Below, piece by piece: positions 593-31,220 of a stretch of 60,943 nucleotides of DNA. The stretch comes from a virus. How positions within the stretch are numbered: position 1 is the stretch's first letter; each line of letters begins with the position of its first letter. The stretch is taken from positions 1 through 60,943 of IMG/VR virus record IMGVR_UViG_3300045988_155865; one strand, given 5' to 3'. The translations under genes were made by a program, and so were the position numbers. Below the pieces are notes generated by a model. The model was given only the letters and a program-made list of their open reading frames with translations, ran no database searches and was not told the origin of the DNA.

Positions 593-966
593 ATTAGTTA
601 AGACCGCACTTGCAACTGCGGAATACACTTATTCTTAGTCAAATAGAATATTTTTTAAAACCTTTCTATTAGTATATCCATTTTAATAAAGAAAATATGC
701 AAAAAGAATTTTTTTATAAGGTTTAGATAGTTTTATTTTAGAAACTTATCTATAAAACTAACCTCATTTCTACACTACTTTTTATTTTTTGAGGTATAGG
801 ATCAAAAAGTTAAAGTTTTTTATTGAGTAATCAGTTTTGCCCTGTAAGTAGCGCTTATTCTATTAGGGCAACAAGTATTAAACCTAACATAAAACACCTA
901 TTTTGATTTATTCCTACGGTGGAATTCCAAACTGAAACATTTTTATCAACTCCTTTTTACATACTT

Positions 967-995
967 ATTATATCACATTTCTAAGTATTTGTCAA
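967..995 (-). promoter_or_regulatory. Consensus sigma-A promoter (minus strand TTGACA-17-TGATATAAT) driving a largely non-coding transcript toward the terminator at 552-592
   Basis: Reverse complement reads agtattgacaaatacttagaaatgtgatataat. Only an 11-codon ORF (MFQFGIPP-TAG-E) follows the RBS. Confidence 0.5.
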
Positions 996-1017
996 TACTT
1001 TTTTTTAAAAAATTTTT

Positions 1018-1659
1018 TTAGTCATAAAACCCTGCATAGTCTATTAAAACAGGTTTATTATTTCTAAAACCATAATTATCTCTATGTAAATCATTTACTT
1101 TTTGTTTTCTTGTCCATCTACAAAATCTTTTTAAAAATTTTTTGCCATATAATTGCATAACTCTTGATAAAAAATAAATAGAAACTTGAGAATCATACAA
1201 GTGTCTTTTCGCATGGCAAAGAATATTATAACTCTTTGAGTCTTCTGGATAAATCCTTCTTGTATCATCATTTAATTTTTGCAAAAGATTACGATCAGCA
1301 CCCCTCCATGAATAACTATATTTTGGTTGTTTGTAAATAGGATATTTTGACTTGCCTAAAACAGCAATTTTTTCTATTGGCAATAAAATTTGTTCAATGC
1401 CCATTTTACAAGCTTGATGATAATTAGCTAACTCTATGGCGCAATAATCTGTATCAGTACTCTCAAAACGAGGCATTTTTAAAACATAATCATATTTTTT
1501 AAATAAAATACACCACCTTGTTGCACCATAATTAATTAATATTTCCTCATGATAATTTCCGCAGAGGGTATCTAAAAATTCTCCTGATAAACAGTCATAA
1601 CCGCCTTCATCAAGATACGTTTCAATATCAGTTAAAATTTGAGCAATTATTTTTTCCAT
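1018..1659 (-). CDS. Hypothetical early protein (213 aa)
   Basis: Complete ORF with TAA stop. Upstream consensus promoter at 1694-1721 and GGGGAAAT-type RBS. Confidence 0.6.
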   Translation of the reverse strand: MEKIIAQILTDIETYLDEGGYDCLSGEFLDTLCGNYHEEILINYGATRWCILFKKYDYVLKMPRFESTDTDYCAIELANYHQACKMGIEQILLPIEKIAVLGKSKYPIYKQPKYSYSWRGADRNLLQKLNDDTRRIYPEDSKSYNILCHAKRHLYDSQVSIYFLSRVMQLYGKKFLKRFCRWTRKQKVNDLHRDNYGFRNNKPVLIDYAGFYD

Positions 1660-1693
1660 TTTTATTTCCCCTTTCCCTTAACTTCTATAACTA

Positions 1694-1721
1694 TTATAGC
1701 ATAATTCGGGATATTTGTAAA
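1694..1721 (-). promoter_or_regulatory. Early promoter, minus strand (TTTACA-17-TGCTATAAT)
   Basis: Reverse complement tttacaaatatcccgaattatgctataat. This is a member of the repeated promoter family. Confidence 0.6.
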
Positions 1722-1868
1722 TAGTCAAATTGCACAAAAAATCGTTGAGATTTTTATTGAAAATGCGAATTGACAGAAATTCCGAGCGTGCGGATGGTGC
1801 ACGCTCGGCTCAAGGTTTTAGTATCTCTAACTAAAAGGGACACTAAAATAAATTTAGTGTCCCTTTCT

Positions 1869-2108
1869 TTATTTCAATTTTATTTTTCCACTTAAATTTT
1901 TATAAATGGGGTGATAACCGCCTTCAAGCTCAGGTGTAACAATGAGAATACAGTGTCTTGTACAAAACTCTTCTAAATCTTCAAGTTTTTTATTTGCAAT
2001 TTTAAGCACTTGTTTTCTCGACACTCTTGCTCGTTCAGCTTTAATCGCTTCAATGGCAATATTTAATTCTGCTTCTGATACATCTTTTAAAATTCCTATT
2101 GAGTTCAT
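1869..2108 (-). CDS. Hypothetical small protein (79 aa)
   Basis: ORF with TAA stop, sitting 14 nt upstream of the next gene as an operon pair. Confidence 0.5.
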   Translation of the reverse strand: MNSIGILKDVSEAELNIAIEAIKAERARVSRKQVLKIANKKLEDLEEFCTRHCILIVTPELEGGYHPIYKNLSGKIKLK

Positions 2109-2122
2109 AAAAACATCTCCTT

Positions 2123-2461
2123 TTATAAAATTATTTCATATTCACGTTTGATTTTAACTACTATTTTCTTAGGTTTTTGCTTACAACAAAATCTGTCATT
2201 CCGTACATACACACCAATTTGCTCTTGTCTAAATTTTTCTTTGTTTTTATCCTCGTATCTAAAAGTATTATACTTAGATAAAGGTAAAGACCAATCATAT
2301 TCAAATTCACTGTCCTGTGGCATTGTATATTGCTTAGCTCTGCGATAATTTATTGTATGTTGTGATTTTCTGCGTTTTAAATCGCTTGTAGTACCAATTT
2401 TTAAAATATAGTTACCTTTTGTATCAGTGTAATGTCCGATGTATAAAAATTCTTTTCCCAT
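2123..2461 (-). CDS. GIY-YIG domain protein (112 aa)
   Basis: N-terminus FLYIGHYTDTKGNYILKIGTTSDLKRRKSQH matches the GIY...YIG...R...H nuclease motif. Confidence 0.6.
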   Translation of the reverse strand: MGKEFLYIGHYTDTKGNYILKIGTTSDLKRRKSQHTINYRRAKQYTMPQDSEFEYDWSLPLSKYNTFRYEDKNKEKFRQEQIGVYVRNDRFCCKQKPKKIVVKIKREYEIIL

Positions 2462-2511
2462 ATAAATTCCTCACTTTTTGAGGAATTTTGGGCGATTTCT
2501 CGCCCTTTTCC

Positions 2512-2901
2512 TCATTTTTTTGGTTTTCTTTTCTGCACAAGAGTTAATTCAAATAAATTTTCGCCTATTTTAAAAGCAATTTGACGCTCTTTATTCGTAA
2601 TTTCGCAATTTTCTATGGCATTTTTACTATTTTTTTGCAAAAAATTAGCAATTTCTGCAATTAAATTTGCTTTTATTGGATTTTCTTTGCGTTCTCTTGT
2701 TACTTTTTTACCATAAGCATTGACCGCACGAACACCGCCTTTTGCCTTTTTTATTGCCTTTTTTTGTTCCTCTGTTAAATCATTATTGACTTGTCGCATA
2801 CCCATTTTATCGACTTGCTCATCTTCTTTTATTAATTCGATAGCTTCATCTCTTGTCAAGTCAAGCGTTTTCATCAATTCGGATATTTTATTTTCATTCA
2901 T
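2512..2901 (-). CDS. Hypothetical protein, paralog A1 of duplicated cassette (129 aa)
   Basis: About 45% identical to the 4192-4572 product (MxExxIxELMxTLDLTRxEAIELxxEDExVDKM...AIKKAKGG). TGA stop. Confidence 0.6.
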   Translation of the reverse strand: MNENKISELMKTLDLTRDEAIELIKEDEQVDKMGMRQVNNDLTEEQKKAIKKAKGGVRAVNAYGKKVTRERKENPIKANLIAEIANFLQKNSKNAIENCEITNKERQIAFKIGENLFELTLVQKRKPKK

Positions 2902-2961
2902 AATATCACCTCTGTTGAATTAATGATTGAGGAGGAGGGGAGATTATTCCCTCCTCCCATA

Positions 2962-3352
2962 TCAGGCAAGTTGGAAGTATGTTACTCTCTTGTCAACAAT
3001 TCTTTTAACCTCACCTGTTCCATCTTCTTCCTTCATTGAGCGAAGAATAGCCGATACTCGTTGATTTGAGAGTGGACTGATATGAACAATCGGCTCTGCG
3101 ATTTTCGCAAGTTGAGTTGCGGTGTAGAGTTTGTTCGGATTAGCCTTCATTTCCTCAAGAATAACTGTTTTAATCTCTCTATTTTTAACTTGATTAGCCG
3201 TAGGTTTATGATTTCCACCATTCTTGCGTTCAAGCAGTTCAATTTCGTGGGTAATGAACTTAACAAAATCTTCCCTATCCGAAACTTTTCCGTCATATGC
3301 AAGCATAGCTTTGAACATATCCTTTTTTGTTACCTTCTTGTTTGTCTTTGTC
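2962..3352 (-). CDS. Hypothetical protein, paralog B1 (about 130 aa, possible winged-helix)
   Basis: Paralog of 4604-4990 (shared FIxHEIELLERKNGGNxKPTA...TATQ...DGTGEVxR...KRVTYF). Start chosen at the ATG with GAAGGAG RBS. TGA stop. Confidence 0.6.
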
Positions 3353-3402
3353 ATATAAAACAACTCCTTCAAAAAATTTTTTTGTTTTGTAATCTCTCTT
3401 GA

Positions 3403-3441
3403 TTACATATTCATTATACCATACTTTGAACAGTTTGTCAA
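3403..3441 (-). promoter_or_regulatory. Early promoter, minus strand (TTGACA-17-TGGTATAAT)
   Basis: Reverse complement ggcttgacaaactgttcaaagtatggtataat. Confidence 0.65.
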
Positions 3442-3597
3442 GCCTTTTTTAAAACTTTTTTTATTTTTTTATTATCTTGCGTCTGTTCTCTATCTCTTTG
3501 GTACATTTATATTATAGCAAATTCTTAATCATTTGTCTATTGGCATTTTGCACAAATTTCGGGACAATATTTTTTTAATCTTTGGACAACTTTTCTC

Positions 3598-3626
3598 TTG
3601 ACAAAAAGTGTGAAGTGTGATATAAT
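3598..3626 (+). promoter_or_regulatory. Perfect consensus promoter on plus strand (TTGACA-17-TATAAT), convergent with the early genes
   Basis: cttgacaaaaagtgtgaagtgtgatataat. The predicted start falls at the conserved GAAATTCCGG hairpin element. Confidence 0.55.
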
Positions 3627-3632
3627 AGAAAT

Positions 3633-3684
3633 TCCGGTTTTTGCGCGTGAAAACCGGCGGGCAAGATTTAAAATCAAGCCCGCC
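3633..3684 (+). ncRNA. Candidate small RNA: GAAATTCCGG element plus two GC hairpins
   Basis: ccggtttt-tgcgcgtg-aaaaccgg and ggcgggc-N15-gcccgcc hairpins immediately downstream of the promoter at 3598-3626. The same element family recurs 8 or more times. Confidence 0.3.
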
Positions 3685-3691
3685 GCACTCT

Positions 3692-3928
3692 TTAATCGCT
3701 AAAATGATATTCCATTATATCATTTAACTCCTCAATGTATCCTTCAATGATTTCTTCTGAGGTGGCCAAACGCACATTTTTATATTCTTCTTTGTTTCTT
3801 AGAATTTTAAGGTCTGTTTTTAGCATGCCCATAAATTCTGTTAAACTGTCCTTAATATCATTTTTAACATTTTTTATAAGTTGATTAGTGTCTTGAGCCT
3901 CATTAAGATTTGCATTATAATCTTTCAT
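3692..3928 (-). CDS. Hypothetical protein (about 78 aa)
   Basis: ORF with TAA stop. Start set at MKDYNANL with AAAGGAG RBS. Confidence 0.5.
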   Translation of the reverse strand: MKDYNANLNEAQDTNQLIKNVKNDIKDSLTEFMGMLKTDLKILRNKEEYKNVRLATSEEIIEGYIEELNDIMEYHFSD

Positions 3929-4191
3929 TTTAATTACTCCTTTTCTTTTTTCTGTAATTACATTATAGCACATTATAGGAAAAATATCAATATACAAATT
4001 GCACAAAAATTACAACAAAAATTTATATAACCTGTCTATTGGTAAAATTCCGGGCGCTACGTATGTGCGCGCCCGGCTGACCGCATTTTCCTTTGCTAAT
4101 TAAAAATACAAAATGAGGGACACTAAAAATGCTTTAGTGTCCCTCATAATAGTCTTACCCATTGGAAACTTTTAACGTCCCCTTTTGGTGC

Positions 4192-4572
4192 TTATTTACG
4201 CGGTGCAGATAATACAATACGAAATCGTCTGCCATTCATATTGAAATCAATTTGCCTTTCAGGGTTTGTAATTTCAATATTCTCACAAGCAGGATCATCT
4301 CCACGGTGTAAAGTACTATATAACAAATTGATTAAGGTTCTTTTATCTTCATCTACCTTCCGCTCAACAACTCTCTTTTTTCCGAATGCGTCAACCGCCT
4401 TAGCTCCACCTTTAGCTTTCTTTATTGCTTGTTTCTGCTCTGCGGTCAAGTCGCTTTCAGTTTCTTTTACTGTCATTTTATCAACTTTCTCATCCTCTTG
4501 GACTAATTCAATAGCTTCTTCCCTTGTAAGGTCTAATGTTTGCATTAATTCAGTAATTCTTTTTTCGTCCAT
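4192..4572 (-). CDS. Hypothetical protein, paralog A2 (126 aa)
   Basis: Paralog of 2512-2901. TAA stop. Confidence 0.6.
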   Translation of the reverse strand: MDEKRITELMQTLDLTREEAIELVQEDEKVDKMTVKETESDLTAEQKQAIKKAKGGAKAVDAFGKKRVVERKVDEDKRTLINLLYSTLHRGDDPACENIEITNPERQIDFNMNGRRFRIVLSAPRK

Positions 4573-4603
4573 TACTCAACCTCCTTGCGGAAGAGTTGAG
4601 GGA

Positions 4604-4990
4604 TTAACCCTCAACTTCAACTCCCACTTTTTTGAAATACGTTACACGCTTTTCAGTGTATCTCTCAACTTCACCTGTTCCGTCTTTGCCCAAACCACGC
4701 AATAGAGCTGAAATACGTTGAGGTGTAAGTACGATTTCAGGAAAATCAGGTTCAATAGCCTTCATAATTTGAGTTGCAGTCATAGGCTTAACAAGAGCTT
4801 TAAGAATTTTTTCTTTAATCTTCTCATTTGCCATCTGTTGAGCGGTCGGTTTACGATTACCGCCATTCTTACGCTCAAGCAACTCAATCTCATGTTCAAT
4901 GAACTTCACTAAGTCAGCACGCTCTTTTACGCAATCCATAGCAAGCAACACCTGAAACATTTCCTTCTTTGTCATTTTCTTTTCTGTCAT
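4604..4990 (-). CDS. Hypothetical protein, paralog B2 (about 128 aa)
   Basis: Paralog of 2962-3352. AAAGGAG RBS and TAA stop. Confidence 0.6.
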   Translation of the reverse strand: MTEKKMTKKEMFQVLLAMDCVKERADLVKFIEHEIELLERKNGGNRKPTAQQMANEKIKEKILKALVKPMTATQIMKAIEPDFPEIVLTPQRISALLRGLGKDGTGEVERYTEKRVTYFKKVGVEVEG

Positions 4991-5108
4991 ATTGACCAAC
5001 TCCTTTAAAAAATTTTTTATTTATTTGTAAAAGGGTTTTGGTTGATAACCCCTCAACCCTTATTACTCTTATATTATATCATTCTTTTATTTATTTGTCA
5101 AGCCTTTT

Positions 5109-5576
5109 TTAAGAATTTTTAATTAAATCTTCAAGAAAATTTATTATATCTATCTCTGTTGGATTGACCGCAATTCTGCCCTTGTCATAATCATAAAAGC
5201 TCTCTCTTACATCAGCCGAATCGTCAAACAAGATTTGAATATCGCCTTCAGTGCATTTTTGTTTTGGTGTTCCATACTGAACGAGATGTATTTCCTCAAT
5301 CGGCAGCCCTGTTTTAGCAAGCCACTCTCTTTTTGCTTTGCGTACCGCATTTTTATAAGCCTGTGTGCTATTCATAGATAACCAACTTGTAATAGCAATC
5401 GTCCAACCTAACACCGCCAACTCATTTAATACAGTAGAGAGTTTATTCATATCGACCATAGGCTCTGCTATTTCATAAGGCATTGGATTTTCGGCTCTTA
5501 ACATTTCAAGCCAACCATCAACCCCATACAAATCTGCTATTGTACCGTCCATATCAAATATCAAAACTTTTCTCAT
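5109..5576 (-). CDS. HAD-superfamily 5'(3')-deoxyribonucleotidase-like phosphatase (155 aa)
   Basis: N-terminal LIFDMDGTIAD is HAD motif I (DxDGT). Size and fold are typical of NT5C-type nucleotidases. Confidence 0.65.
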   Translation of the reverse strand: MRKVLIFDMDGTIADLYGVDGWLEMLRAENPMPYEIAEPMVDMNKLSTVLNELAVLGWTIAITSWLSMNSTQAYKNAVRKAKREWLAKTGLPIEEIHLVQYGTPKQKCTEGDIQILFDDSADVRESFYDYDKGRIAVNPTEIDIINFLEDLIKNS

Positions 5577-5610
5577 TTTTAATTACCCCTTTTCTTTATT
5601 TTCTATAATA

Positions 5611-5638
5611 ATTATACCATAATTATTATTATTTGTCA
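5611..5638 (-). promoter_or_regulatory. Early promoter, minus strand (TTGACA-17-TGGTATAAT)
   Basis: Reverse complement cttgacaaataataataattatggtataat. Confidence 0.65.
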
Positions 5639-5648
5639 AGTATTTTTT

Positions 5649-6386
5649 TTAAATTTTTAAATTTTCTTTTAATTCCAAAAGACGCTTATTAATATATTCT
5701 TTATGGTGCTCTGTTGGAATGCGCCAACACGTTTTATTAATTGACTTATTAACTTTTTTGTGTTGAGCATAACACTTTGCCATTATCTGACATTCAATCA
5801 AGACATCCTGTAAGCCTTGATGTTCTTCTGTAAACTGTGTTTCATTTGTTAAGTAGCGGAAGCCGATTTCCGCAGACGTCCGCAGATTTCCAGAAGGTGA
5901 AAAATAATCATATTGAATAGCAAATTCCGCAAATCTTTTTTGTGTGTAGAGTAGTTGACAAGCCATATTCCAAATACAATTTATTTCCATCCCATAAGGA
6001 AAAAACCAACGATACTTTGACTTAGTAACATATCGCAAAGTAGTATTCAATGCGTTTATATCAAAGAATGCATTATAGGCGCAGATAGTCTTAATGTTAT
6101 ATTTTTCTATTGTATCTTTTATTATCCATCTTGCAAGTAATAAATCAACAACTTGCGATTGATGAGTTGATATTCTCTCAAGGTACTTTGGAATTTTTTT
6201 TGAATAATATGCGGTCTTCATAAGCTCTTTTTCAAAACAAAATATATCTCTTATAATAAGGCTTTTCTGTTCATATACATTTCCTTCCTTATCTACCACG
6301 GCATAACCTATATCATATACAAGTGGATACAAGGTATCATTCGCCGTTTCAACGTCAATAACTAAAAATTTCTTTTTTCTATTCAT
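5649..6386 (-). CDS. DEDDh-family 3'-5' exonuclease (DnaQ-like fold, 245 aa)
   Basis: LVIDVETAN (Exo I, DxE), AYNAFFDINAL (Exo II) and HQGLQDVLIECQI (Exo III, H-x4-D). Confidence 0.65.
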   Translation of the reverse strand: MNRKKKFLVIDVETANDTLYPLVYDIGYAVVDKEGNVYEQKSLIIRDIFCFEKELMKTAYYSKKIPKYLERISTHQSQVVDLLLARWIIKDTIEKYNIKTICAYNAFFDINALNTTLRYVTKSKYRWFFPYGMEINCIWNMACQLLYTQKRFAEFAIQYDYFSPSGNLRTSAEIGFRYLTNETQFTEEHQGLQDVLIECQIMAKCYAQHKKVNKSINKTCWRIPTEHHKEYINKRLLELKENLKI

Positions 6387-6525
6387 TTTTAAGCTCCTCT
6401 CCTTAACTTCTATAACTATTATAGCATACCTTTAATTATTTGTCAATGCTTTTTTAAAAAAATTTTTTCATCAAGTTGTACAAAATCGGGATTTCGCATA
6501 ATTAATATTTTGTTAAAATTGTCTA

Positions 6526-6554
6526 TTGACATTTTTTGTTGGATATGTTATAAT
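6526..6554 (+). promoter_or_regulatory. Perfect consensus promoter on plus strand (TTGACA-17-TATAAT)
   Basis: tattgacattttttgttggatatgttataat. Confidence 0.55.
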
Positions 6555-6560
6555 AGAAAT

Positions 6561-6650
6561 TCGGCGCGTGACACCCCATCACGCGCCGCTCAAGCTGACT
6601 AATTAATTTCAGCAAAAGGAAAGGAGGGGCAACTGCCCCTCGCTTATTTT
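6561..6650 (+). ncRNA. Candidate small RNA (about 90 nt): GAAATTCGGC hairpin plus intrinsic terminator
   Basis: cggcgcgtga-cacccca-tcacgcgccg, then gaggggcaactgcccctc and a U-run, all downstream of the promoter at 6526-6554. Confidence 0.4.
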
Positions 6651-6653
6651 AAC

Positions 6654-7727
6654 TTAGTTATTTGCAATTTCAAGTAGTCTTGCAATCTCTTTATCAATAA
6701 TTGAAAATAGTGTTGGTGATACATTTTTTACAGGTGTATTATTTATTTCTCTTGTTTCAACTGAACACTTAAACTCAATATTGTATCTACAAGTAATATA
6801 ACTCTTAGCTGGGTTTTTCTTTTTTCTTACAAAGTAAATAAGATTTTCCCCTTTTGCTATACTATCATGGTAAAAGCTACCTACGCAGTTATTTTGTTGT
6901 ATTCCCTCATCAGCAAAAGCTTCTAAAGTATGTGGTACAACAACCTGTAAATCATCAAGGTCAAGTTTTTCAAGGTCAAATATTTTTTCTTCTTGTATAA
7001 AAATAGATTTTTCCCTTTCACGGTCTTTTATTTTGTTTAGTTGTTTAACATTATAATCAAGTCCTCTATTATCATCATAATACAGTTCAAGTGTTGGACA
7101 AGCTCTTAAAAGATAACGCAAATCATAATAATCTCTTGGTATATTATAATTTTTTAAATCTACTTTTAAACTTTTTATCAATTTTTTTTGCATTAAAGTT
7201 GTTAATTCCCAAAAGTCCTCATGAAAACAGAAATAGTTGCAAAGAAGATGTATAAGTTTTTCATTTTCCTCTTTATTGCCAGATAAGGATAAGGCTGTCT
7301 TATACTCTTTATAAAATTGAAAAGTTTTATAAGAAATTTTATAGCCATTTTCTTTTAAATATTTAATATAACCCTTATCCATTTTTATATCATAAAGACT
7401 ATTGACATAATCACCTGCTTGCCGACCTGTCAAAGCCTCTGTATCAAGTAAATCAGTGTATGAAAACCATTGTTCTAATCTTGTTAAAAGTATTTTATCA
7501 CTCATCATATAACAAAGATCTTTTGCACCCATAATCAATCCATATGCAACCTCTTTATATAAATTTATATCTGCATTTTCGGCATATCTCAAAAAATTTT
7601 TTACAAGAATTTCTTTTCCACTTACGCCAATAGCTTTTTTTGCATTAAAATCATATATTGCAGTTTTATTGTTATCAAAACCGAATATCAATAAATTCTT
7701 TTCCTTACTAATACTTGTCAACATCAT
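6654..7727 (-). CDS. PcfJ-like domain protein (357 aa)
   Basis: C-terminal EGIQQNNCVGSFYHDSIAKGENLIYFVRKK resembles the PcfJ-like signature. The family assignment is from memory. Confidence 0.4.
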   Translation of the reverse strand: MMLTSISKEKNLLIFGFDNNKTAIYDFNAKKAIGVSGKEILVKNFLRYAENADINLYKEVAYGLIMGAKDLCYMMSDKILLTRLEQWFSYTDLLDTEALTGRQAGDYVNSLYDIKMDKGYIKYLKENGYKISYKTFQFYKEYKTALSLSGNKEENEKLIHLLCNYFCFHEDFWELTTLMQKKLIKSLKVDLKNYNIPRDYYDLRYLLRACPTLELYYDDNRGLDYNVKQLNKIKDREREKSIFIQEEKIFDLEKLDLDDLQVVVPHTLEAFADEGIQQNNCVGSFYHDSIAKGENLIYFVRKKKNPAKSYITCRYNIEFKCSVETREINNTPVKNVSPTLFSIIDKEIARLLEIANN

Positions 7728-8167
7728 TTTAATTACTTCCTTTCCTCTTCCTTTGATATATCTATTATATCATACTTTGTTTTGTTTGTCAAGAGATTTT
7801 TAAAACTTTTTTTATTTTTTATAACCTATCTCTTATCCCTCTCTCATTTTCTATAATTATTATAACGCAAATAGAGAAAAAAGTCAAGAGTTTTGGGAAA
7901 TATTTTTATTGTTATTTTGCACAAGTTTTCGCTTAGATTTTTATGTAGTTTGCCTATTGACGTAAATTCGGCTCGCAGCGCCCAAGTGCGAGCCGCTGAG
8001 ATTTTATCAATTAATAATTTCGTATAAAAAAATAAGGGTAAAACCCTTATTTTTAAAAAAGTGATACAATTCTTTCTGCTATTAATGCGAGCGTATCAAT
8101 CATCATAGGCATATTTAAAATTTTTACCATAGCCATTGCCATTTTCCGCATTTTAATCACTTCCTTT

Positions 8168-8353
8168 TTAATTAAATATTATTCTTAGTAAGAAGATAAT
8201 TCCATAAATTATTAAGACCAATTTCCAAGAGAATATTGCTATTGGAATGATTAACAATACCAACCAAACCACTAAAGCAATAATACCAAATATAATTGCT
8301 TCCACGAATAACATATCCAATATTACTTTTAAAAATACTAAAAATTCAAACAT
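8168..8353 (-). CDS. Small membrane protein (about 61 aa, two predicted TM helices)
   Basis: MFEFLVFLKVILDMLFVEAIIFGIIALVVWLVLLIIPIAIFSW. AGAGG RBS. Confidence 0.5.
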   Translation of the reverse strand: MFEFLVFLKVILDMLFVEAIIFGIIALVVWLVLLIIPIAIFSWKLVLIIYGIIFLLRIIFN

Positions 8354-8423
8354 TTTAATTACCTCTTTCTTAATTTCTATATTTATTATAGCATAATTAT
8401 TATCATTTGTCAAGTGTTTTTTA

Positions 8424-8573
8424 TTAAATTGCCCAATATTTTTTTATATTATATTTATAAGTATCATCATTTTTTTCTGCCATTTGATTAATCCACTCTT
8501 GTGCTTTTTTACAGGTGGTATAAACCCCTTTAATTTCATCAGTATATACATCTATTACTATAAATACATCCAT
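8424..8573 (-). CDS. Hypothetical small protein (about 49 aa)
   Basis: ORF with GAGGAAAG RBS and upstream promoter. Confidence 0.4.
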   Translation of the reverse strand: MDVFIVIDVYTDEIKGVYTTCKKAQEWINQMAEKNDDTYKYNIKKYWAI

Positions 8574-8613
8574 TGTTCTTTCCTCACTTTCTATAATTAT
8601 TATAACATAGTTG

Positions 8614-8892
8614 TTATGATTTGTCAAGACTTTTTTTACGATTTTTCATCATATTCTCAACAAAAGCCTTTTTCCTATCTTCTGCCCCATATGGTCGATA
8701 TTTATATGAGGTATAACCTTCCGCATATAAGTCGTCTGGTGTTTTATAACGTTGTTGAGCTATCTTTGTAATTGCCTTTTTAACATATGCGGCTTGATTG
8801 GCTTTAAAATCTGCCATATTAGCAACCTCTATAACAGTAGCTACTGGACGAAACTTTTTTCCCTCGTGAAACATTGTTACTTGAATTTTCAT
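8614..8892 (-). CDS. Hypothetical protein (about 92 aa)
   Basis: ORF with AAGGAGTGG RBS and TGA stop. Confidence 0.5.
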   Translation of the reverse strand: MKIQVTMFHEGKKFRPVATVIEVANMADFKANQAAYVKKAITKIAQQRYKTPDDLYAEGYTSYKYRPYGAEDRKKAFVENMMKNRKKSLDKS

Positions 8893-9035
8893 AAAGACCA
8901 CTCCTTAAACTCTATATTGACTATTTTATTTTTTTTAACATATTTCTTTTTATAAGGTGCGCAAGGGGTTTTGCTCTCCTCATAATACTCTGCCTTTATG
9001 TTACATATTTTTGTTTCCTTATACTCTGTTTTCAT
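8889..9035 (-). CDS. Hypothetical small protein (about 48 aa)
   Basis: AAGGAGGAA RBS. Start overlaps the stop of the downstream gene (ATGA). Confidence 0.4.
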   Translation of the reverse strand: MKTEYKETKICNIKAEYYEESKTPCAPYKKKYVKKNKIVNIEFKEWSL

Positions 9036-9332
9036 TTTTAATTCCTCCTTTACTGTACTTATAGTATACCATATTTCAGGAAAACTGTCTATTGGCATTT
9101 TGCACAAATTTTGCTTTCAATTTTTATGCAATCTGCTACTTGCCAAAAGTCCGGCGCTAGCGTTGGATTTACATTACCGCTAGCGCCGGACGAACGCAAA
9201 TTAGACATAGCTGCCTATGTCTAATCTACGAATTAAGAAAGATATATTATTATAAAGGAATGAATTACCATATATAACCTACCTTATAGGATAAGGAGGG
9301 CGGGGCAGACAGATTTTTCTGCCCCATTTGTT

Positions 9333-9431
9333 AGTTATTAGCTTTCTCAAGTTCTCTGCCAGCTTTTATTGCTTGCTTGCTTTCAAGTCCATATTTATTG
9401 CAAATTTTAATAAATTTTTCATATGTCATTT
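9333..9431 (-). CDS. Tiny ORF (32 aa) behind a consensus promoter
   Basis: Promoter ttgacaaataataaaagatatgttataat, then AAGGAAAGGAAG RBS. GC hairpin at the 3' end. Confidence 0.3.
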
Positions 9432-9511
9432 TTATTACTTCCTTTCCTTAACTTCTATATATATTATAACATATCTTTTATTATTTGTCAATAGTTTTTT
9501 AAAAAATATTT

Positions 9512-9913
9512 TTATTTTAAAAATTCAACTATTTCATAATCTGTAACAATATTTTTAAAAAGTGGAGTTTCTTTGATAATTTTTTCTATTTTTACTTTTG
9601 AGTTTGCTTTTGCCTTCGCATAAGTTAATTGGTCTACTGTAAAATAATGGACATTTCCATCCGCAAATTCAACATATATATTAAATTCTTCTGAATGGTA
9701 AGTGCTTCCTATCGTTTTGCCAGGTATCCCTCTGCGATGGTTAATTGCTTTAGTATGTTCTACGTTTGTAATTTCACAAACTTCATAAGTTGTTTCTATT
9801 GGTTTACTGCATAATTTTTCAATTTGTAGAGTTGCAGATAAACATATAGTTAAAATAATTATTCCTATGAATGTATTTATAATAATATCAATAGCATTAA
9901 TTTTTCTTTTCAT
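9512..9913 (-). CDS. Secreted or membrane-anchored protein (133 aa, N-terminal signal/TM)
   Basis: MKRKINAIDIIINTFIGIIILTICLSATLQ hydrophobic N-terminus. TAA stop. Confidence 0.55.
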   Translation of the reverse strand: MKRKINAIDIIINTFIGIIILTICLSATLQIEKLCSKPIETTYEVCEITNVEHTKAINHRRGIPGKTIGSTYHSEEFNIYVEFADGNVHYFTVDQLTYAKAKANSKVKIEKIIKETPLFKNIVTDYEIVEFLK

Positions 9914-9942
9914 TTTTCATTACCTCTCTATCTTTTTTCTTA

Positions 9943-10260
9943 TTAGCAATATATTAAACCCATGTTTCTCCAACTTAATATTGAGATTTGAGCATTTGCC
10001 CTGCCAATAATAAGAGCCTGTTTCTTGGTACTCTCTCTATGTGACTTGTCTATATAGTAAATACCATTAGCAAACCAAACACCGCAATTACCATTATATG
10101 CTTTAATCGCCTTCATTGCTTTCTGTTGGTCTGTTGTTTCTATGCCTTCTGTTGCTACTTGATAACCTGTTTTATAAGTTATGATTTTACCATTCTTTAA
10201 AGTTAAACCATCATTATCTTGTAGTTTTCTTAGAGTTCTAATATTAATCATTTTTTTCAA
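9943..10260 (-). CDS. Hypothetical protein (105 aa)
   Basis: Complete ORF with upstream promoter-like element. Confidence 0.5.
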   Translation of the reverse strand: MKKMINIRTLRKLQDNDGLTLKNGKIITYKTGYQVATEGIETTDQQKAMKAIKAYNGNCGVWFANGIYYIDKSHRESTKKQALIIGRANAQISILSWRNMGLIYC

Positions 10261-10381
10261 TCCCTTCTCTTATCTTGATCACATTATATCATCTATTGCG
10301 ATATTTGTCAATAGTTTTTTAGAAAAAAAGTTGCACAAATTGGGATGCAGATTTTTGTGTAATATTTGTATAAATTTTCTC

Positions 10382-10410
10382 TTGACTTTTATGGCAAGGT
10401 GTGATATAAT
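10382..10410 (+). promoter_or_regulatory. Perfect consensus promoter on plus strand (TTGACT-17-TATAAT)
   Basis: ttgacttttatggcaaggtgtgatataat. Confidence 0.55.
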
Positions 10411-10416
10411 ATTTCG

Positions 10417-10473
10417 AGCTGTCTCGATTCTTGCGGGCGCAAGAAAAAAAAGAGTGCTTTTACACTCTTTTTT
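10417..10473 (+). ncRNA. Candidate small RNA (about 60 nt) ending in an intrinsic terminator
   Basis: atttcgagctgtctcg..gcgggcgcaag, then aaaagagtgcttttacactctttttt (hairpin plus U-run). Confidence 0.4.
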
Positions 10474-10696
10474 CCCTCCATAAAGTACGAATTAAAGCTT
10501 CAATCTCTTCGATTATTGACTTAGCTTCTTCTTCTATCATCCTTTTACTCTCTATTGAAATATTGTTAACGTATTCAAAAATGATAACACAATCTTTTTC
10601 ATCATTATAAAAATCTAACTTATTATAATAAACTCTTATTAACTGTTCATTTATTATAAACAAATCATTTTTAATTTTTATAGGATAAATTTCCAT
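10460..10696 (-). CDS. Hypothetical protein (about 78 aa)
   Basis: ORF with GGAAAGAGG RBS. Bidirectional terminator at its 3' end. Confidence 0.45.
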   Translation of the reverse strand: MEIYPIKIKNDLFIINEQLIRVYYNKLDFYNDEKDCVIIFEYVNNISIESKRMIEEEAKSIIEEIEALIRTLWREKRV

Positions 10697-10715
10697 TTTT
10701 ATCAACCTCTTTCCT

Positions 10716-10831
10716 TAAAATGGGCAAGTAACAATTCTCATTGTAATTTCCTCACCAAGCATTTCCCAAACCTCGGCAATAAGTTTATGAAATGTAAATT
10801 CACCTGTGTTTTTATTGATATACATAATCAT
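10716..10831 (-). CDS. Tiny ORF (about 38 aa)
   Basis: AAGGAGGAAT RBS with ATG. Low confidence because of its small size. Confidence 0.25.
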
Positions 10832-10871
10832 TTTAATTCCTCCTTTATTTGTTGTTATTCTTATATCCCTG

Positions 10872-11033
10872 TTAAGCAGGGATATAAGAAACTAACTTAC
10901 CACGTTTTTGTTCTTCTCTTTTTAGCTCTGCGGCACTCAATCCATAAACCCAGCCTTGTGAGCCGTCCGCATATTCATAATAAAAACCTCTACCTTTGTT
11001 ATTTCCTTTAGTCCATACCTTCATTTTAATTAC
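10872..11033 (-). CDS. Small protein (about 53 aa)
   Basis: Promoter ttgacaaaacgcagagagtatgctataat, then AAGAGGTAAT RBS. Confidence 0.35.
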   Translation of the reverse strand, partial: VIKMKVWTKGNNKGRGFYYEYADGSQGWVYGLSAAELKREEQKRGKLVSYIPA

Positions 11034-11104
11034 CTCTTTTCTTAATTTCTATATTTATTATAGCATACTCTCTGCGTTTTGTCAAGCCTTTTTTTAAAAT
11101 TTTT

Positions 11105-11347
11105 TTAAAAAACTTTTAAAATTATTAAGGCAAGTGTTATTGCAAAGAATGTAATATCTTTTGTTTTATCTGCGATAGGTCTTTTTAAAACAAATTGTCT
11201 TGCAACTCCGATTCCATTTGCTACAAGATATAAACACTGAGCAAAGATATAAAAATAACCGACAGTAATTTGACCAATAATGCACAACACAAGATTGATA
11301 TATCCTATCCATTCCCAAGCTTTTGTATTATTCATAATAATCCCCAA
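11105..11347 (-). CDS. Small membrane protein (80 aa)
   Basis: Multiple hydrophobic segments (WEWIGYINLVLCIIGQITVGYFYIFAQCLYLVANGIGV...). Confidence 0.5.
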   Translation of the reverse strand: MGIIMNNTKAWEWIGYINLVLCIIGQITVGYFYIFAQCLYLVANGIGVARQFVLKRPIADKTKDITFFAITLALIILKVF

Positions 11348-11489
11348 ACCCTTCTGTAATAAATTCTTTTCCTTTATCTTGATTACATTATATCATAACT
11401 ACTACACTTTGTCAATGACAGAATAGTAACAATTACATTACAGCTGTGTTACAAATTGTTATTTTTTTAACAATCTTTCTACCACAATC

Positions 11490-11521
11490 TTACAAAAAGA
11501 ACAGGCTTTTAAGCCTGTTCT
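11490..11521 (-). terminator. Rho-independent terminator
   Basis: agaacaggc-tttta-agcctgttct, with a T-run following on the minus strand. Confidence 0.55.
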
Positions 11522-11542
11522 TAGATAAGAAGGAAAAAACAA

Positions 11543-11701
11543 TTATTTTGTTATTAGCTTAGTCATTAAATTAAAATTAGAATACTGTGGATTCTCATGA
11601 GTGTTCTTTGCAAGTATTTCACCATAGCAACACACAAGATATACAATAATTAACAGTACTGCAATATTAGACAACCCTTTTCTTACGTTCCACTTAGCCA
11701 T
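11543..11701 (-). CDS. Small membrane protein (52 aa)
   Basis: MAKWNVRKGLSNIAVLLIIVYLVCCYGEIL... Preceded by the promoter at 11736-11764 and an AGAGG RBS. Confidence 0.45.
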   Translation of the reverse strand: MAKWNVRKGLSNIAVLLIIVYLVCCYGEILAKNTHENPQYSNFNLMTKLITK

Positions 11702-11735
11702 TCCTCTGCACCTCTTTCCTCTTGACTACATACTC

Positions 11736-11764
11736 ATTATACCATAGATTAGCATTGCTGTCAA
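11736..11764 (-). promoter_or_regulatory. Early promoter, minus strand (TTGACA-17-TGGTATAAT)
   Basis: Reverse complement ttgacagcaatgctaatctatggtataat. Confidence 0.6.
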
Positions 11765-11835
11765 TGACAGATTGGTTACAGTTATATTACAATTGTGTTA
11801 CATTACTCTTTGTGCATGTTGCACAAACGACTAGA

Positions 11836-14825: not shown

Positions 14826-14832
14826 TATAAAA

Positions 14833-14870
14833 GGGTATGAGATTTTTATCTCATACCCTTATTTTATTTT
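14833..14870. terminator. Bidirectional intrinsic terminator
   Basis: gggtatgagat-tttt-atctcataccc flanked by an A-run and a T-run. Confidence 0.65.
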
Positions 14871-15119
14871 GTCAATAAGTGCTTGCGGAAGGTCGACTCC
14901 AAGTTCTTCAAGGACTGCTTTTGCGGTTTCATAACGAGGATCTACAAAATCGCTTTTACTTATTCCTATACATTTAAAGTCTTCACCCTCAATGAAATAG
15001 AAGTCCATCTCATCACCTTCCATAATTTTTAATCTATCACGTAAGCCTTTTGGAATTATTATTCTTCCAGATTTATCTATTTTTCTAATTGCGTTTTCTT
15101 TCTAACAATTAAGATTCAT
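14859..15119 (-). CDS. AbrB/SpoVT (swapped-hairpin) family regulator with in-frame TAG at codon 6
   Basis: GGAGGAAAATAAAAATG start. MNLNC-TAG-KENAIRKIDKSGRIIIPKGLRDRLKI matches the AbrB/MazE DNA-binding motif. Confidence 0.55.
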
Positions 15120-15555
15120 TTTTATTTTCCTCCTTATCACAATGCCCAAAACAAAAACACTCAAATGAACATTGCTTATTTATATCGTCACAAGGTCTAA
15201 TATCTTTAATTAAATCAAAAGGTAAATTGAAATCTTCTTGATATTTTATAATATCTTGATACTGACCATGTTTTATAAAATAATTAAGTATAAAATTATT
15301 TTTTTGTTTATTATAAGTTTTTTCATATTCTTTGATTTGCTTTAATTTTTCTTTATCTTCTTCGCTGTAATCTTCTGCCATAATAATTGGCATCCTCCAA
15401 CGCTCTCCAGAGCCATTCTTTATCCATTTATTATATTTTCTCCAAATTTCATTCTCTAAGACAAGTGGACTTGTTATATTATTTTCTGCGCAATAGTCAT
15501 CAAATGCGGCATTAGCGCAAAATATCAAAGCATTATAGTTATTTAACTCAATCAT
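15109..15555 (-). CDS. Hypothetical protein (about 148 aa), upstream in the same leftward operon as the AbrB-like gene
   Basis: ORF with AAAGAAAGAG RBS. Its stop overlaps the AbrB-like start region. Confidence 0.45.
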   Translation of the reverse strand: MIELNNYNALIFCANAAFDDYCAENNITSPLVLENEIWRKYNKWIKNGSGERWRMPIIMAEDYSEEDKEKLKQIKEYEKTYNKQKNNFILNYFIKHGQYQDIIKYQEDFNLPFDLIKDIRPCDDINKQCSFECFCFGHCDKEENKNES

Positions 15556-15623
15556 CTTTTTTATCAACTCTTTCTTTATTTTATATAATAATAATATCAA
15601 AAATTTTAAAAAAAGTCAAAAAT

Positions 15624-15652
15624 TTGACAAAAGAAAAATTTTCTGGTATAAT
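15624..15652 (+). promoter_or_regulatory. Consensus promoter on plus strand (TTGACA-17-TGGTATAAT)
   Basis: tttgacaaaagaaaaattttctggtataat, followed by GGAGGG RBS and ATG at 15683. A divergent minus-strand promoter is adjacent. Confidence 0.6.
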
Positions 15653-15682
15653 ATAACTATAGACTGGAGGGATTATAAAATA

Positions 15683-16744
15683 ATGATTAAACTTGATTAT
15701 TCTTTAGAAACTCCAGAAGAACGTAAATTGTTAGTAGAATAGATATTAGAAGAAGTAGAAAATCCTTCTCCTCAATACTTAGAAATTTTAGCTAACTATT
15801 TAATTCTTTGCATGGAGAAACAAGAAAGAAAAGAGAACAAAATTATTACAGAAAATCATTTAGTGACAGTAAATAAAAGAGAAACTTCTTTCGAAGGTCT
15901 TGTTTCCCAATTTGAAAATGGCGAAGATGGAATTTATAATTTGATGACAAAAAATAAAAATATAATATTTCAACCAAAAAAATCAATTACAAAATAGGAT
16001 TTAGAAGAAATACAACCGTTAAGACAATTAAAAGAAGCTATTGATTTGTGGGAAGCAAAATTAAAAACAGTTAAAGGAAAAGACGCCTTTATAATCAAGT
16101 CAGCTTTAATAGAAATGCGAAAAGATTAGTATGTAATAAAAAATGCTTATAGACAACCTATTGTGACAACTAAATTAACAAGAACTAAATATTTTCCAAA
16201 ATTAGATGAAAATATTACTTTTGATAAAGATGGATATTGCGTTCCGACCGGTGTAACGTGTATAGATCCTCGTATATGCGAAACTGCATTATGTAATTAC
16301 GCAAAATTAAAACAAGTATCAGAAGGCAACTTTGAATCTGATTTATGGTATTTTATGTTTGATTTTGATCAATTATTAGAAAAAGCATTAAAAGATGAAC
16401 CTTTGTATAGGCGAATTGTTCAATATAAGATTGAAGGTTTGCAGAATGAAGAAATTTAGAAAGCTCTTTAGGAAGAATTTAATATGACGCATACTGTTGA
16501 ATATATCTCAAGCTTATGGAGAAATAAAATTCCTAAAATGATTGCGTCAGTAGCAGAAGATGAGTATTTGCAATGGTATTATCTTAATGAAAAAAAAGGC
16601 AAGTATAAAAGATGCAGTAGATGTGGGCAAATTAAATTAGCTCATAGCAAGTATTTTTCAAAAAATAAAACAAGCAAAGATGGATTCTATTCTTTATGTA
16701 AATGTTGCAGAAATGCAAGAGCAAAGTTAAAAAAGAAAGGATGA
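15683..16744 (+). CDS. Hypothetical protein with C-terminal zinc ribbon (about 354 aa); amber-recoded
   Basis: Single frame through four sub-ORFs of the track, TAG-only interruptions, TGA stop. C-terminal CSRCGQ...CKCCRNARAKLKKKG. Confidence 0.5.
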
Positions 16745-23831: not shown

Positions 23832-24923
23832 ATGGCTTTAGATAAGAACAATCTTTTATCACTTATGAAAACTGTAGCTAAGGCTGACCCGACTTCTCCT
23901 ACAGCTTATAGTTATGATGGACAGTCTTTTTCATACGAAGCATTAAATAAAACACTTCGTGATGAATTAAATATGTATGCTGGCACTTATCCTCTTTATA
24001 GAGAAAATAAAAACTTAATTTTCTCTTTAATCGAAGAAACTATGGATGATATTCTTCCAAAGAAAGTGCAAGATTCATATGGTCAGTTTGCTGAAGTAAA
24101 AACTTTTAAGCAAGGAGATAAACCAGTTTTCCGTAGAAAAGTTAATGCAAAGATGCGTGCTAAACAATTCATTACAAGAGTAGGCTTAGCAGGTATTTAT
24201 GAAGTATTCAAGCTAGGAGGACGCGAAAGCTTCGAAGTTCCTACAAGTGCTGTAGGTGGAGCTGCTCAAATCGGACTTGAAGAATTCTTAGATGGTATGG
24301 TTAATTTCGCAGAAGTAACTCAGATAGTTATGGAGGGTATTGACGAAATTATTTATAGAGAAGCAGCTAAGGCACTTCAAGATTCAATTAATCAGTTACC
24401 AGCTGCAAATAGAACAGCTGCTGCTGGTTTCGACGAAGAGGCTTTTGACCAGTTGGTTAATGTTGCAGCTGCATATGGTGAGCCAACAATTTATTGTACT
24501 TACGAATTTGCAGTAAAAATGGTTCCTTCAGACGCTTGGAGATATACTGAAGCTATGAAGAATGAATTATGGACAACTGGAAGACTTGCTTCATACAAAG
24601 GTCATAGAGTAATTATATTGCCACAAACTTTTATGGATGAAACAAATTCTACAAAGGTTATTGACCCTGGTTATTGTTGGATTATCCCATCTGGCGGAGA
24701 TACAAAACCAGTAAAAATTGCTTTTGAAGGTCAAACAATTGTAGATGAATATACAAACAAAGACAGATCAAGAGAAATTCAAGTATATAAGAAGGTTGGA
24801 GTAGTTGCATTAATGACTAACAACATTTGTTCTTATATTGATACTTCACTACAAAATAAGATGGATACTTGGGCTTTGAACAACACTTCTATCAAGAATA
24901 CAGTTGTAGTGAAAAACGCATAA
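23832..24923 (+). CDS. Major capsid protein (363 aa)
   Basis: Size, position and composition are typical of an HK97-fold MCP. A strong terminator follows. Confidence 0.6.
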   Translation: MALDKNNLLSLMKTVAKADPTSPTAYSYDGQSFSYEALNKTLRDELNMYAGTYPLYRENKNLIFSLIEETMDDILPKKVQDSYGQFAEVKTFKQGDKPVFRRKVNAKMRAKQFITRVGLAGIYEVFKLGGRESFEVPTSAVGGAAQIGLEEFLDGMVNFAEVTQIVMEGIDEIIYREAAKALQDSINQLPAANRTAAAGFDEEAFDQLVNVAAAYGEPTIYCTYEFAVKMVPSDAWRYTEAMKNELWTTGRLASYKGHRVIILPQTFMDETNSTKVIDPGYCWIIPSGGDTKPVKIAFEGQTIVDEYTNKDRSREIQVYKKVGVVALMTNNICSYIDTSLQNKMDTWALNNTSIKNTVVVKNA

Positions 24924-25014: not shown

Positions 25015-25581
25015 ATGGAAAAAACACAACTTATAAAAGTTAAAAATAGAAGTGCCGGACAGGTAGTTTACAGCATTCCGGAAGATAATATTAGAAGAAT
25101 ATTTGCGTCTGGCGAAGAGAAAAACATTCAGTTAGGCGAATTAGAAAAGTTGACTTATCAGGGGGGCGGTAAAGAATTAATAGCTAATTATTTGCAATTA
25201 ACAGACCCAAGAGCAACTGAAGAATTAAACGTTCATACTGAACCTGAGTATTGGATGAATGAAGAACAGATTTTAGATTTGTTACAGAGTGGTTCCCAAG
25301 AACAGTTTTTAGATGCTTTAGATTTTGCCCCTCAAGGAGTAATAGATTTAATTAAAGATTTAGCAGTTAAAATTCGTTTAAATGATTTTAATAAAAGAGA
25401 AGCTATAAAAGCAAAAACTGGTTTTGATGTATCTGCAGCTTTAGCTCATATAGAAGAAGAAAAAGCAGAAGATAATACTTCAGAAGTACAACAAGCAAAG
25501 CGCAGAGTTCAACCAGCAGAAGATACAGCAGAAACAGCACGTAGAACTACACCAAAGACTTATAATGTAGTAACAAAATAA
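25015..25581 (+). CDS. Hypothetical head/neck protein (188 aa)
   Basis: Complete ORF with GGAGAA RBS and no TAG. Confidence 0.5.
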   Translation: MEKTQLIKVKNRSAGQVVYSIPEDNIRRIFASGEEKNIQLGELEKLTYQGGGKELIANYLQLTDPRATEELNVHTEPEYWMNEEQILDLLQSGSQEQFLDALDFAPQGVIDLIKDLAVKIRLNDFNKREAIKAKTGFDVSAALAHIEEEKAEDNTSEVQQAKRRVQPAEDTAETARRTTPKTYNVVTK

Positions 25582-28778: not shown

Positions 28779-29756
28779 ATGAAATATGGTATTCGTGAAA
28801 TATGCGATGTCGTTTTAAGAGCAAAAACTACTCAAAAAATTGGCAAGATGGAATTCCAAAAAGATATGCCAGTTCTTTATTTTGATAGCTTAAAAACTTC
28901 AAGCTTAGAGGGTGCTGCTACGTCAGTTTATGCTACTGGTGGTAGAGGTAACACGAGATTAATTGCATGGGAAGGTGAAAGAACTATTACTTTCACGATG
29001 GAAGATGCTTTAATTTCACCAATTAGTTTAGCTGTATTATCTGGAGCTGGAGTTCTTGAAGGCTCAGAAGATAATGAAATGTCTCAGGTTAAACATGCAA
29101 CAGAGACTGCAGCAGTGGTAACTTCAAATACTGTTAAATATTGTGAAATTACTAAAGCGCCTTATGTGGAAACAGGTAAAGAATTTTATTTATATATAAT
29201 TCCACTTGATGCGCATGGTGATATGGCAGGTCAGCCAATAAGAGTAGACGCATTTAAACAATTTACTGGAGTTACTGTTTCAGAAGGTATGATTGGTTTA
29301 GACTTATCTGAAATTTATGGTAAAGCATTAAAGCAATGCGATTTAGTAATGGTTGATTATTATTATAAAGATACAAAATCACTTGCTACAATGATTGATA
29401 TTGATGCATCACACTTTGCTGGTAACTATTACTTAGAGGCTTCAACATTATGGAGAAATAAATCTGGTATTGATGTAGACGCTGAATTTATAATTCCTAA
29501 TTGTAAGATTCAATCGAATTTCACATTCACATTAGCAGCTACTGGTGATCCAAGTACATTTACATTTACTATGGATGCTTTCCCAGATTATACAAAGTAT
29601 AATAAATCAAAGAAAGTGCTATGTGCGATAAGAGTAGTAGAAGAAGACAATAAGACAACATCTACTTTCAAAGGTGAAACGATAGGAAATACTGCTCACA
29701 CAGGAGATGCAGCTGGAAGAGCATCTTGGAGAAATACAGTAACAGATAACGAATAA
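28779..29756 (+). CDS. Major tail protein (325 aa)
   Basis: AAGGAGGAAAA RBS, abundant Gly/Thr/Ser beta-rich composition, strong terminator after. Sits upstream of the chaperone and tape measure. Confidence 0.55.
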   Translation: MKYGIREICDVVLRAKTTQKIGKMEFQKDMPVLYFDSLKTSSLEGAATSVYATGGRGNTRLIAWEGERTITFTMEDALISPISLAVLSGAGVLEGSEDNEMSQVKHATETAAVVTSNTVKYCEITKAPYVETGKEFYLYIIPLDAHGDMAGQPIRVDAFKQFTGVTVSEGMIGLDLSEIYGKALKQCDLVMVDYYYKDTKSLATMIDIDASHFAGNYYLEASTLWRNKSGIDVDAEFIIPNCKIQSNFTFTLAATGDPSTFTFTMDAFPDYTKYNKSKKVLCAIRVVEEDNKTTSTFKGETIGNTAHTGDAAGRASWRNTVTDNE

Positions 29757-31166: not shown

Positions 31167-31220
31167 CAAATGAAAAATTTTTTGATATAATTATATAAAG
31201 AGATAAAGGAGGCTATTAAA

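Follow-up and report, generated by a model that had tools for sequence, protein, structure and literature searches.

The locus described here raises the question of whether a stop codon placed almost at the start of a regulatory gene is a device controlling that gene or a codon like many others in its genome. It lies in a stretch of 60,943 nucleotides (IMG/VR virus record IMGVR_UViG_3300045988_155865, positions 1 to 60,943; hereafter the window) which, to judge from its sequence, comes from a TAG to Gln recoded (code 15), SPbeta/phAss-1-like, Firmicutes-type gut phage. A gene of the AbrB/SpoVT family carries an in-frame TAG at codon 6 and a preliminary description of the window had seen in this TAG a gate that could couple a transcriptional switch to the recoding state. 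We favour another reading, with a probability of about 0.8: the gene is an AbrB/SpoVT-family gene of a code-15 phage in which the codon-6 TAG is an ordinary sense codon, sharing a genome-wide dependence on suppression and not constituting a gene-specific device.

The gene is located on the minus strand (14859..15119) and includes 86 codons when TAG is read as Gln, with a TAA stop codon at 14861-14859. A Shine-Dalgarno sequence, AAGGAGG (minus strand, 15135-15129), is separated by a 9-nt spacer from the ATG start codon (15119-15117) and is kept in the related loci L001, L003, L004, L005 and L017. The start is followed by AAT CTT AAT TGT and then by the TAG (15104-15102), which occupies a variable N-terminal tail, five residues ahead of the Pfam domain. 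The sequence after the TAG is KENAIRKIDKSGRIIIPKGLRDRLKI... (codons AAA GAA AAC GCA ATT AGA AAA ATA GAT ...). All the elements that had been described for this gene, a ribosome binding site, the ATG, the MNLNC peptide, the TAG and an AbrB-type domain, are therefore present at these coordinates.

Residues 11-43 (14991..15089, minus strand) form a predicted SpoVT/AbrB DNA-binding domain of the looped-hinge helix or swapped-hairpin type. They match Pfam PF04014 with 31.6 bits (E=1.7e-7; cutoff 24.7) and the protein also matches NCBIfam TIGR01439, "transcriptional regulator, AbrB family", with 38.9 bits (E=5e-10; cutoff 28.3). Sequence matches of the 86-aa product in the PDB are the N-domains of SpoVT, AbrB and Abh (E 3e-5 to 5e-3). 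The alignment with SpoVT covers SpoVT residues 5-38 and places query residue 9 opposite SpoVT residue 5, so that the codon-6 TAG falls at residue 2 of AbrB/SpoVT. Arginines R8, R15 and R23/R24 of AbrB are conserved basic residues of its DNA-contacting loops. R12, R19 and R27 of the phage protein align with the corresponding SpoVT arginines, the equivalent of R24 being an Asp, and R12, R19, R27 and R29 are invariant among 12 homologues. The C-terminal half (DPRY...VLEELG) is family-specific and its region includes two confident helices in an AF2 monomer model (pLDDT 80). The top Foldseek matches of this model include AbrB (9a4b), pSSV C56/C68 and Sso7c4, all with E>0.1, in a comparison where a monomer cannot show the hairpin swap. 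The sequence matches and the conserved arginines identify the product as a genuine small member of the SpoVT/AbrB superfamily and a putative DNA-binding regulator.

Bacillus AbrB, Abh and SpoVT bind promoter DNA. The phage protein shares with them its small size, the N-terminal DNA-binding domain of about 45 residues and the conserved arginines. It differs in carrying four extra variable N-terminal residues, the TAG among them, and its own two-helix C-terminus of about 35 residues (DPRY..VLEELG..P..L) in place of an AbrB-type C-domain or a SpoVT GAF domain. It is also phage-encoded and forms part of a divergent-promoter module beside structural genes.

The DNA that was checked for the TAG comprised the sources of the closest protein matches together with one contig each from IMG/VR and the JGI metagenomes; searches for relatives with the AbrB protein or by alignment had given one contig in IMG/VR and one extra locus in the JGI metagenomes. 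Among the proteins returned by the homologue search were full-length ones of 86-94 aa, and there were two shortened calls, P0011 and P0014, of 54 and 49 aa. The codon-6 TAG occurs in six other independent assemblies (L001, L003, L004, L005, L017 and L053), seven in all, obtained from different samples and with 90-98% protein identity (L001/L053, L003, L004, L005, L017). Within this TAG-bearing clade, pN/pS is 0.05-0.19, with pS reaching 0.28, a sign of purifying selection downstream of the TAG, and the part of the gene 3′ to codon 6 is thus maintained as coding sequence. On the 5′ side, MN[LF]NC is kept as protein sequence in relatives which have a sense codon at this position, implying that the upstream ATG is the true start and that the frame is continuous. 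Downstream of the TAG, the first canonical start (ATG, GTG or TTG) is that of Met33, and initiation there would delete two thirds of the domain. A leader peptide followed by reinitiation was also considered and ruled out, since MN(L/F)NC-x-KEN is a single continuous conserved protein sequence in TAG-free relatives. The preliminary description had named a read error, or a downstream in-frame start leaving the domain intact, as observations that would tell against it; the recurrence of the TAG in seven independent assemblies and the position of the first start at Met33 exclude both. Its statement that a full-length product requires read-through of the TAG follows from the frame itself, with no downstream start to rescue it.

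With TAG read as a sense codon throughout the window, ORFs of 100 aa or more add up to 63.9 kb instead of 29.4 kb and reach 2891 aa, while no comparable gain in ORF coverage is obtained with TGA as sense. The distribution of these TAGs is strongly partitioned. An early block on the minus strand (1018-11335; 17 ORFs) contains no TAG in 2309 codons against 42 expected at the late density. The 15,359 codons of the remaining ORFs include 283 in-frame TAGs (1.84% per codon), TAG represents 38% of Gln-type codons and 33 of the 38 non-early ORFs (12931 onward) include at least one. When the fibre-like, sigma-like and YonG-like proteins are aligned to those of relatives, the TAG columns are mostly opposite Gln. 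None of the 17 early genes is TAG-terminated; for the late genes the equivalent statement would be circular, as only TAA and TGA served as stops in ORF calling. Both properties sought in a code-15 gene set, many TAGs opposite Gln and a TAG-free early block, were found.

The structural genes match SPbeta-type families (YonB, YonD_N and YonG_N) together with portal and terminase PHROGs. The major capsid protein shares 50% identity with its phAss-1 counterpart and 37% with that of Enterococcus phages of roughly 140 kb; the contigs of the relatives are about 155 kb. phAss-1 is classified in GenBank under "Caudoviricetes code 15 clade" and is a code-15 phage with an annotated tRNA-Sup-CTA (PMC10607447). 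ARAGORN detected no tRNA, suppressor or other, in the 60.9-kb window, and an Rfam search of the window gave no match. A degenerate tRNA-Sup pattern derived from phAss-1 matched 28 IMG/VR contigs, the related 155-kb contig not being among them. The 20-40 kb region of phAss-1 contains no homologue of the AbrB-type protein, of the 148-aa protein encoded with it or of the sigma-like protein (both described below). Strong Shine-Dalgarno sequences and promoters of this style are signs of a Firmicutes-type host.

Does codon 6 then differ from the other TAGs? At the background density, 1.6 TAGs are expected in 86 codons and one is observed (P of at least one, 0.79). An early position is also common: a TAG occurs within codons 2-10 in 10 of 39 ORFs, compared to 15% of ORFs (about 6) expected from TAG density. 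The codon-6 TAG is followed by A, which is the commonest context of in-frame TAGs (114/282).

Comparison with relatives is more informative. The preliminary description had suggested looking among homologues for Gln at this position and it is indeed encoded there, by CAA, in L006 and L007 (76% identical), which provides direct support for TAG as Gln. Codon 6 is TCT in L008-L012 and AGC in L013. In L018 and L019 the tail preceding KEN is shorter and different (MQITKEN and MNIIKEN, respectively). The codon-6 TAG is confined to a clade with at least 90% identity. Most of the relatives with a different codon 6 are themselves recoded, with 2-10 TAGs in neighbouring genes, yet their AbrB gene has no TAG. 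The exceptions are L010-L012, where TAG serves as a stop codon and no gene contains it in frame. Their AbrB homologue (ENA/Logan) is 62% identical, and L010 has a second gene of the MazE/AbrB type. The presence of an AbrB homologue in these TAG-stop relatives implies that the regulator family extends beyond recoded lineages.

A wider survey covered 80 IMG/VR loci carrying the neighbouring, divergently transcribed gene, which encodes a 353-aa protein, and considered the opposite strand within 2.5 kb upstream of it. A divergent AbrB-like gene was found in 48 of the 80, representing 27 distinct proteins. In-frame TAGs occur in these AbrB-like genes in at least five clades, at codons 6, 11, 16, 47+60 and 67/70. 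When 13 recoded clades are taken together, 6 of 31 Gln-type codons (19%) are TAG in the AbrB-like genes and 36 of 179 (20%) in the neighbouring gene. The extent of recoding is therefore the same in the AbrB-like gene as in this late-gene neighbour. That the close clade has kept its TAG is uninformative, since the TAGs of the adjacent fibre gene are equally retained: all five that can be compared are present in L005, which has gained two more.

Neither conservation of a TAG at the same position nor an excess over the TAG background, the two signs looked for in a stop-codon gate, was found. The claim that the codon-6 TAG is a particular gate is thus unsupported, in view both of the use of TAG as Gln across the late genes with CAA, TCT or AGC at codon 6 in relatives and of the occurrence of TAGs elsewhere in AbrB-like genes at the frequency of the neighbouring gene. 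The claimed coupling to the recoding state stands in part: the full-length product does need suppression, but this is a class property of recoded genes and is not position-specific.

The AbrB-type gene is the second cistron of a two-gene operon consisting of a sigmaA-like promoter, a 148-aa ORF, the AbrB-type gene and a terminator. The promoter (minus strand, 15619-15591; TTGACT-17-TATTAT with an upstream TG) is kept in L003, L006, L013, L018 and L019 and lies inside the region of about 15,556-15,660 where the preliminary description had correctly placed a divergent promoter. Facing the opposite direction, a perfect consensus promoter (plus strand, 15624..15652; TTGACA-17-TATAAT with TG) precedes the gene for the 353-aa protein. 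The -35 hexamers of these back-to-back promoters are 4 bp apart and the layout is kept in relatives whose AbrB proteins are just 62-76% identical. At its other end, the operon is closed by a bidirectional intrinsic terminator (14831..14860, both strands; 13-bp stem) situated between the convergent AbrB-type gene and a gene encoding a 490-aa tail-fibre-like protein. The arrangement resembles lambda PR/PRM (CI/Cro) in that a small regulator gene diverges from the promoter of the next block, here with the -35 elements 4 bp apart; it differs in the fold of the regulator and no evidence of lysogeny was seen.

The divergent gene (15683..16744, plus strand) is the first of the terminase/portal/capsid block and carries five in-frame TAGs. 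Its 353-aa product belongs to PHROG 5767, "sigma factor" (E 2.6e-51), and the same annotation appears in Enterococcus phage records. Nothing was found for it in Pfam, NCBIfam, a PDB sequence search or Foldseek with the AF2 model (pLDDT 72.6), and the designation "sigma-like" used here is weakly supported. The PHROG 5767 family includes more than 6,400 metagenome proteins (E<1e-5), yet is without a Pfam or NCBIfam model. Its members share a conserved C-terminal Cys4 zinc-ribbon/HNH-like tail, and their structural similarity to sigma factors is weak. The sigma-like gene is also present in Enterococcus phage VRE9_1, with no adjoining AbrB gene. In L020-L022 (ENA), where it is 69% identical, the divergent slot is occupied by an unrelated acidic ORF of 86 or 97 aa which is not AbrB-like.

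The upstream cistron of the operon (15109..15555, minus strand), encoding the 148-aa protein, is TAG-free and overlaps the start of the AbrB-type gene by 11 nt, its TAA stop codon (15111-15109) overlapping AbrB codons 3-5. A C-terminal PC-x6-QC-x3-C-x5-C motif, which could be a site for a metal or an Fe-S cluster, is invariant in its family. The family is very narrow (17 clusters among 1.8 billion representatives) and the protein has no match in Pfam, PHROGs, NCBIfam, PADLOC or the PDB. The cistron is TAG-poor across lineages, with one TAG in about 24 Gln-type codons, which would allow the two cistrons to be translated differently. L013 and L019 have no gene for the 148-aa partner, only the AbrB gene by itself.

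In the reading that we prefer, the codon-6 TAG would be one of about 280 sense TAGs of the window, having arisen by drift of a Gln codon (CAA/CAG to TAG) in one sub-clade, at a codon that sits in what appears to be an unconstrained N-terminal tail. Full-length AbrB-type protein, like most late proteins, would be made only after the infected cell has become able to suppress amber codons, presumably through a tRNA-Sup(CUA) which the phage encodes beyond the window. TAG is not avoided in AbrB-like genes across this phage group, and the protein is thus evidently not needed before suppression becomes available. It might then bind the AT-rich divergent promoter region and modulate its own operon, the sigma-like gene or both after the code switch. 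A role as a transcriptional switch, as earlier suggested, is plausible.

An alternative of low probability is that the protein is a host-directed mimic of AbrB/SpoVT which acts on host transition-state or sporulation promoters and not on those of the phage. Bacillus SpoVT and AbrB are its best PDB matches, gut phages have been reported to carry spoVT and abrB homologues (PMC10294663) and both Shine-Dalgarno sequences and promoter style are those of a Firmicutes-type host. The similarity is, however, confined to the generic 35-residue N-domain, and the C-terminal half is family-specific and has no SpoVT GAF domain. Moreover, its divergent position next to the gene that opens the structural block, conserved in 48 of 80 loci, points to a function within the phage itself. 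A search of 185,579 GTDB genomes revealed no prophage copy of the AbrB-type gene, and no host was identified.

A dedicated amber gate, which we consider quite unlikely, would operate on an early bicistronic mRNA: the 148-aa protein would be made at once and the AbrB-type protein only after suppressor tRNA has accumulated, when it would feed back on the promoter of the sigma-like gene; selection for this delay would keep the TAG in place. The host-like sigmaA promoter means that the AbrB mRNA could be early, in which case the TAG would truly have a delaying effect in this clade. Conservation of this promoter is in keeping with such a gate, as are an upstream cistron which is TAG-free here and TAG-poor in relatives, and a TAG kept in all seven assemblies while synonymous sites diverged to a pS of 0.28. 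The neighbouring gene itself combines a perfect consensus promoter with five TAGs, and early-type transcripts may more generally be gated at translation here. Against this, equally recoded relatives have CAA or Ser at codon 6 and a TAG-free AbrB gene, TAGs of other clades occur at unrelated positions and at background frequency, and retention of a single TAG is expected without selection, as the fibre gene illustrates (5/5 in L005). In L008 it is the upstream cistron which bears the TAG. These relatives, without a TAG at codon 6 or with one in the other cistron, are the reason for our low rating of what remains of the gate. What remains is that, if the operon is in fact early, the TAG would in this clade hold back AbrB synthesis, or reduce it, compared with that of the first cistron. 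We would be similarly reserved about a fuller version in which the amber codon splits a host-transcribed mRNA in time, giving the Cys4 148-aa protein from the start of infection and the AbrB-type protein after the code switch, the latter then acting on the promoter of a sigma-like gene blocked by five TAGs.

That the gene encodes a type II antitoxin of the MazE/PemI type, with the 148-aa protein as its toxin, is very unlikely. The Pfam family bears the name MazE_antitoxin, PHROG 4681 is annotated "antitoxin" and the two genes overlap and are co-transcribed. The partner, however, has no toxin-family match in Pfam, PHROGs, NCBIfam or PADLOC and is missing in L013 and L019, the AbrB-type gene is the downstream cistron and its C-terminus is predicted as two confident helices and not as a disordered toxin-binding tail. 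Compared to MazE/PemI/VapB, the locus shares PF04014 and a small two-gene operon, but it shows no recognisable toxin, a partner that is dispensable in relatives and a reversed gene order. The toxin-antitoxin pair was rejected as a candidate, a cognate toxin that is always co-inherited not having been found.

Finally, it is scarcely credible that the gene is an artefact or dead, its TAG being a sequencing error or nonsense mutation or its real start lying downstream: the ORF is certainly broken under the standard code and some pipelines called just the 54-aa or 49-aa remnant (P0011, P0014), but the TAG is common to seven independent assemblies, pN/pS downstream of it is 0.05-0.19, the N-terminus 5′ to it is conserved at the protein level in TAG-free relatives and no ATG, GTG or TTG intervenes before Met33.

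In recoded phages, in-frame stops have been proposed to hold late and lytic proteins to the suppression-competent phase, and recoding as a translational regulator of late/lytic functions is already published (Borges et al., bioRxiv 10.1101/2021.08.26.457843); block-wise code use in phages has also been described (Mgcod, 10.1101/2022.06.29.495998). The window has in common with code-15 phages such as phAss-1 (PMC10607447) a TAG-free early block, a TAG-rich structural block and TAGs opposite Gln. It differs in that the TAG-bearing gene encodes a putative transcription factor and belongs to an operon with a host-type promoter, on the opposite strand within the late region and behind a TAG-free cistron; published work has stressed structural, lysis and integrase genes and not regulators. 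What the locus adds is a documented putative transcription factor among the recoded genes of a Firmicutes-type phage with code 15. The drift of TAG positions at background frequency argues against considering single early TAGs as purpose-built gates. The locus also offers a compact test bed for recoding as a timer, with a host-type promoter followed by a TAG-free and then a TAG-bearing cistron, and a divergent strong promoter followed by a TAG-rich gene, provided that a host or a heterologous suppressor system is at hand. If the reading in which the mRNA is split in time were true, a code switch would here be converted into a transcriptional feedback loop.

Several other features of the window concern its promoters. 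The minus strand of the early block (960-11770) includes 13 perfect TTGACA-17-TATAAT promoters with an upstream TG and A/T-rich UP-like tracts. Each of the 13, within about 11 kb, precedes a small TAG-free ORF, forming a very dense host-type array. In the TAG-rich region, perfect sigmaA promoters are found only at 15624-15652 and 31163-31191, both on the plus strand, and these have the near-identical spacer AA[AT]GAAAAATTTT[CT]TG; a search with this shared motif matched only those two promoters. The promoter at 31163 drives a 176-aa ORF and then an ORF of 2883 aa with 77 TAGs. The pair suggests either that transcripts of early type are made but blocked in translation by their TAGs, or that the two promoters share an operator. 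Plus-strand consensus promoters antisense to the early block are present at 3598-3700, 6526-6640 and 10382-10480, each leading directly into a short hairpin region rich in GC, against 30% GC for the genome, and a terminator-like T-run. These three units, which have no Rfam or ARAGORN match, are candidate small or antisense RNAs.

The late region also contains two giant plus-strand ORFs, at 31876-40527 (2883 aa, 77 TAGs) and 40695-46724 (2009 aa, 32 TAGs). Three ORFs inside the recoded block are TAG-free (23832-24923, 25015-25581 and 28779-29756), and include that of the major capsid protein (YonB-like) and two others; this may reflect TAG avoidance in the most highly expressed late genes.
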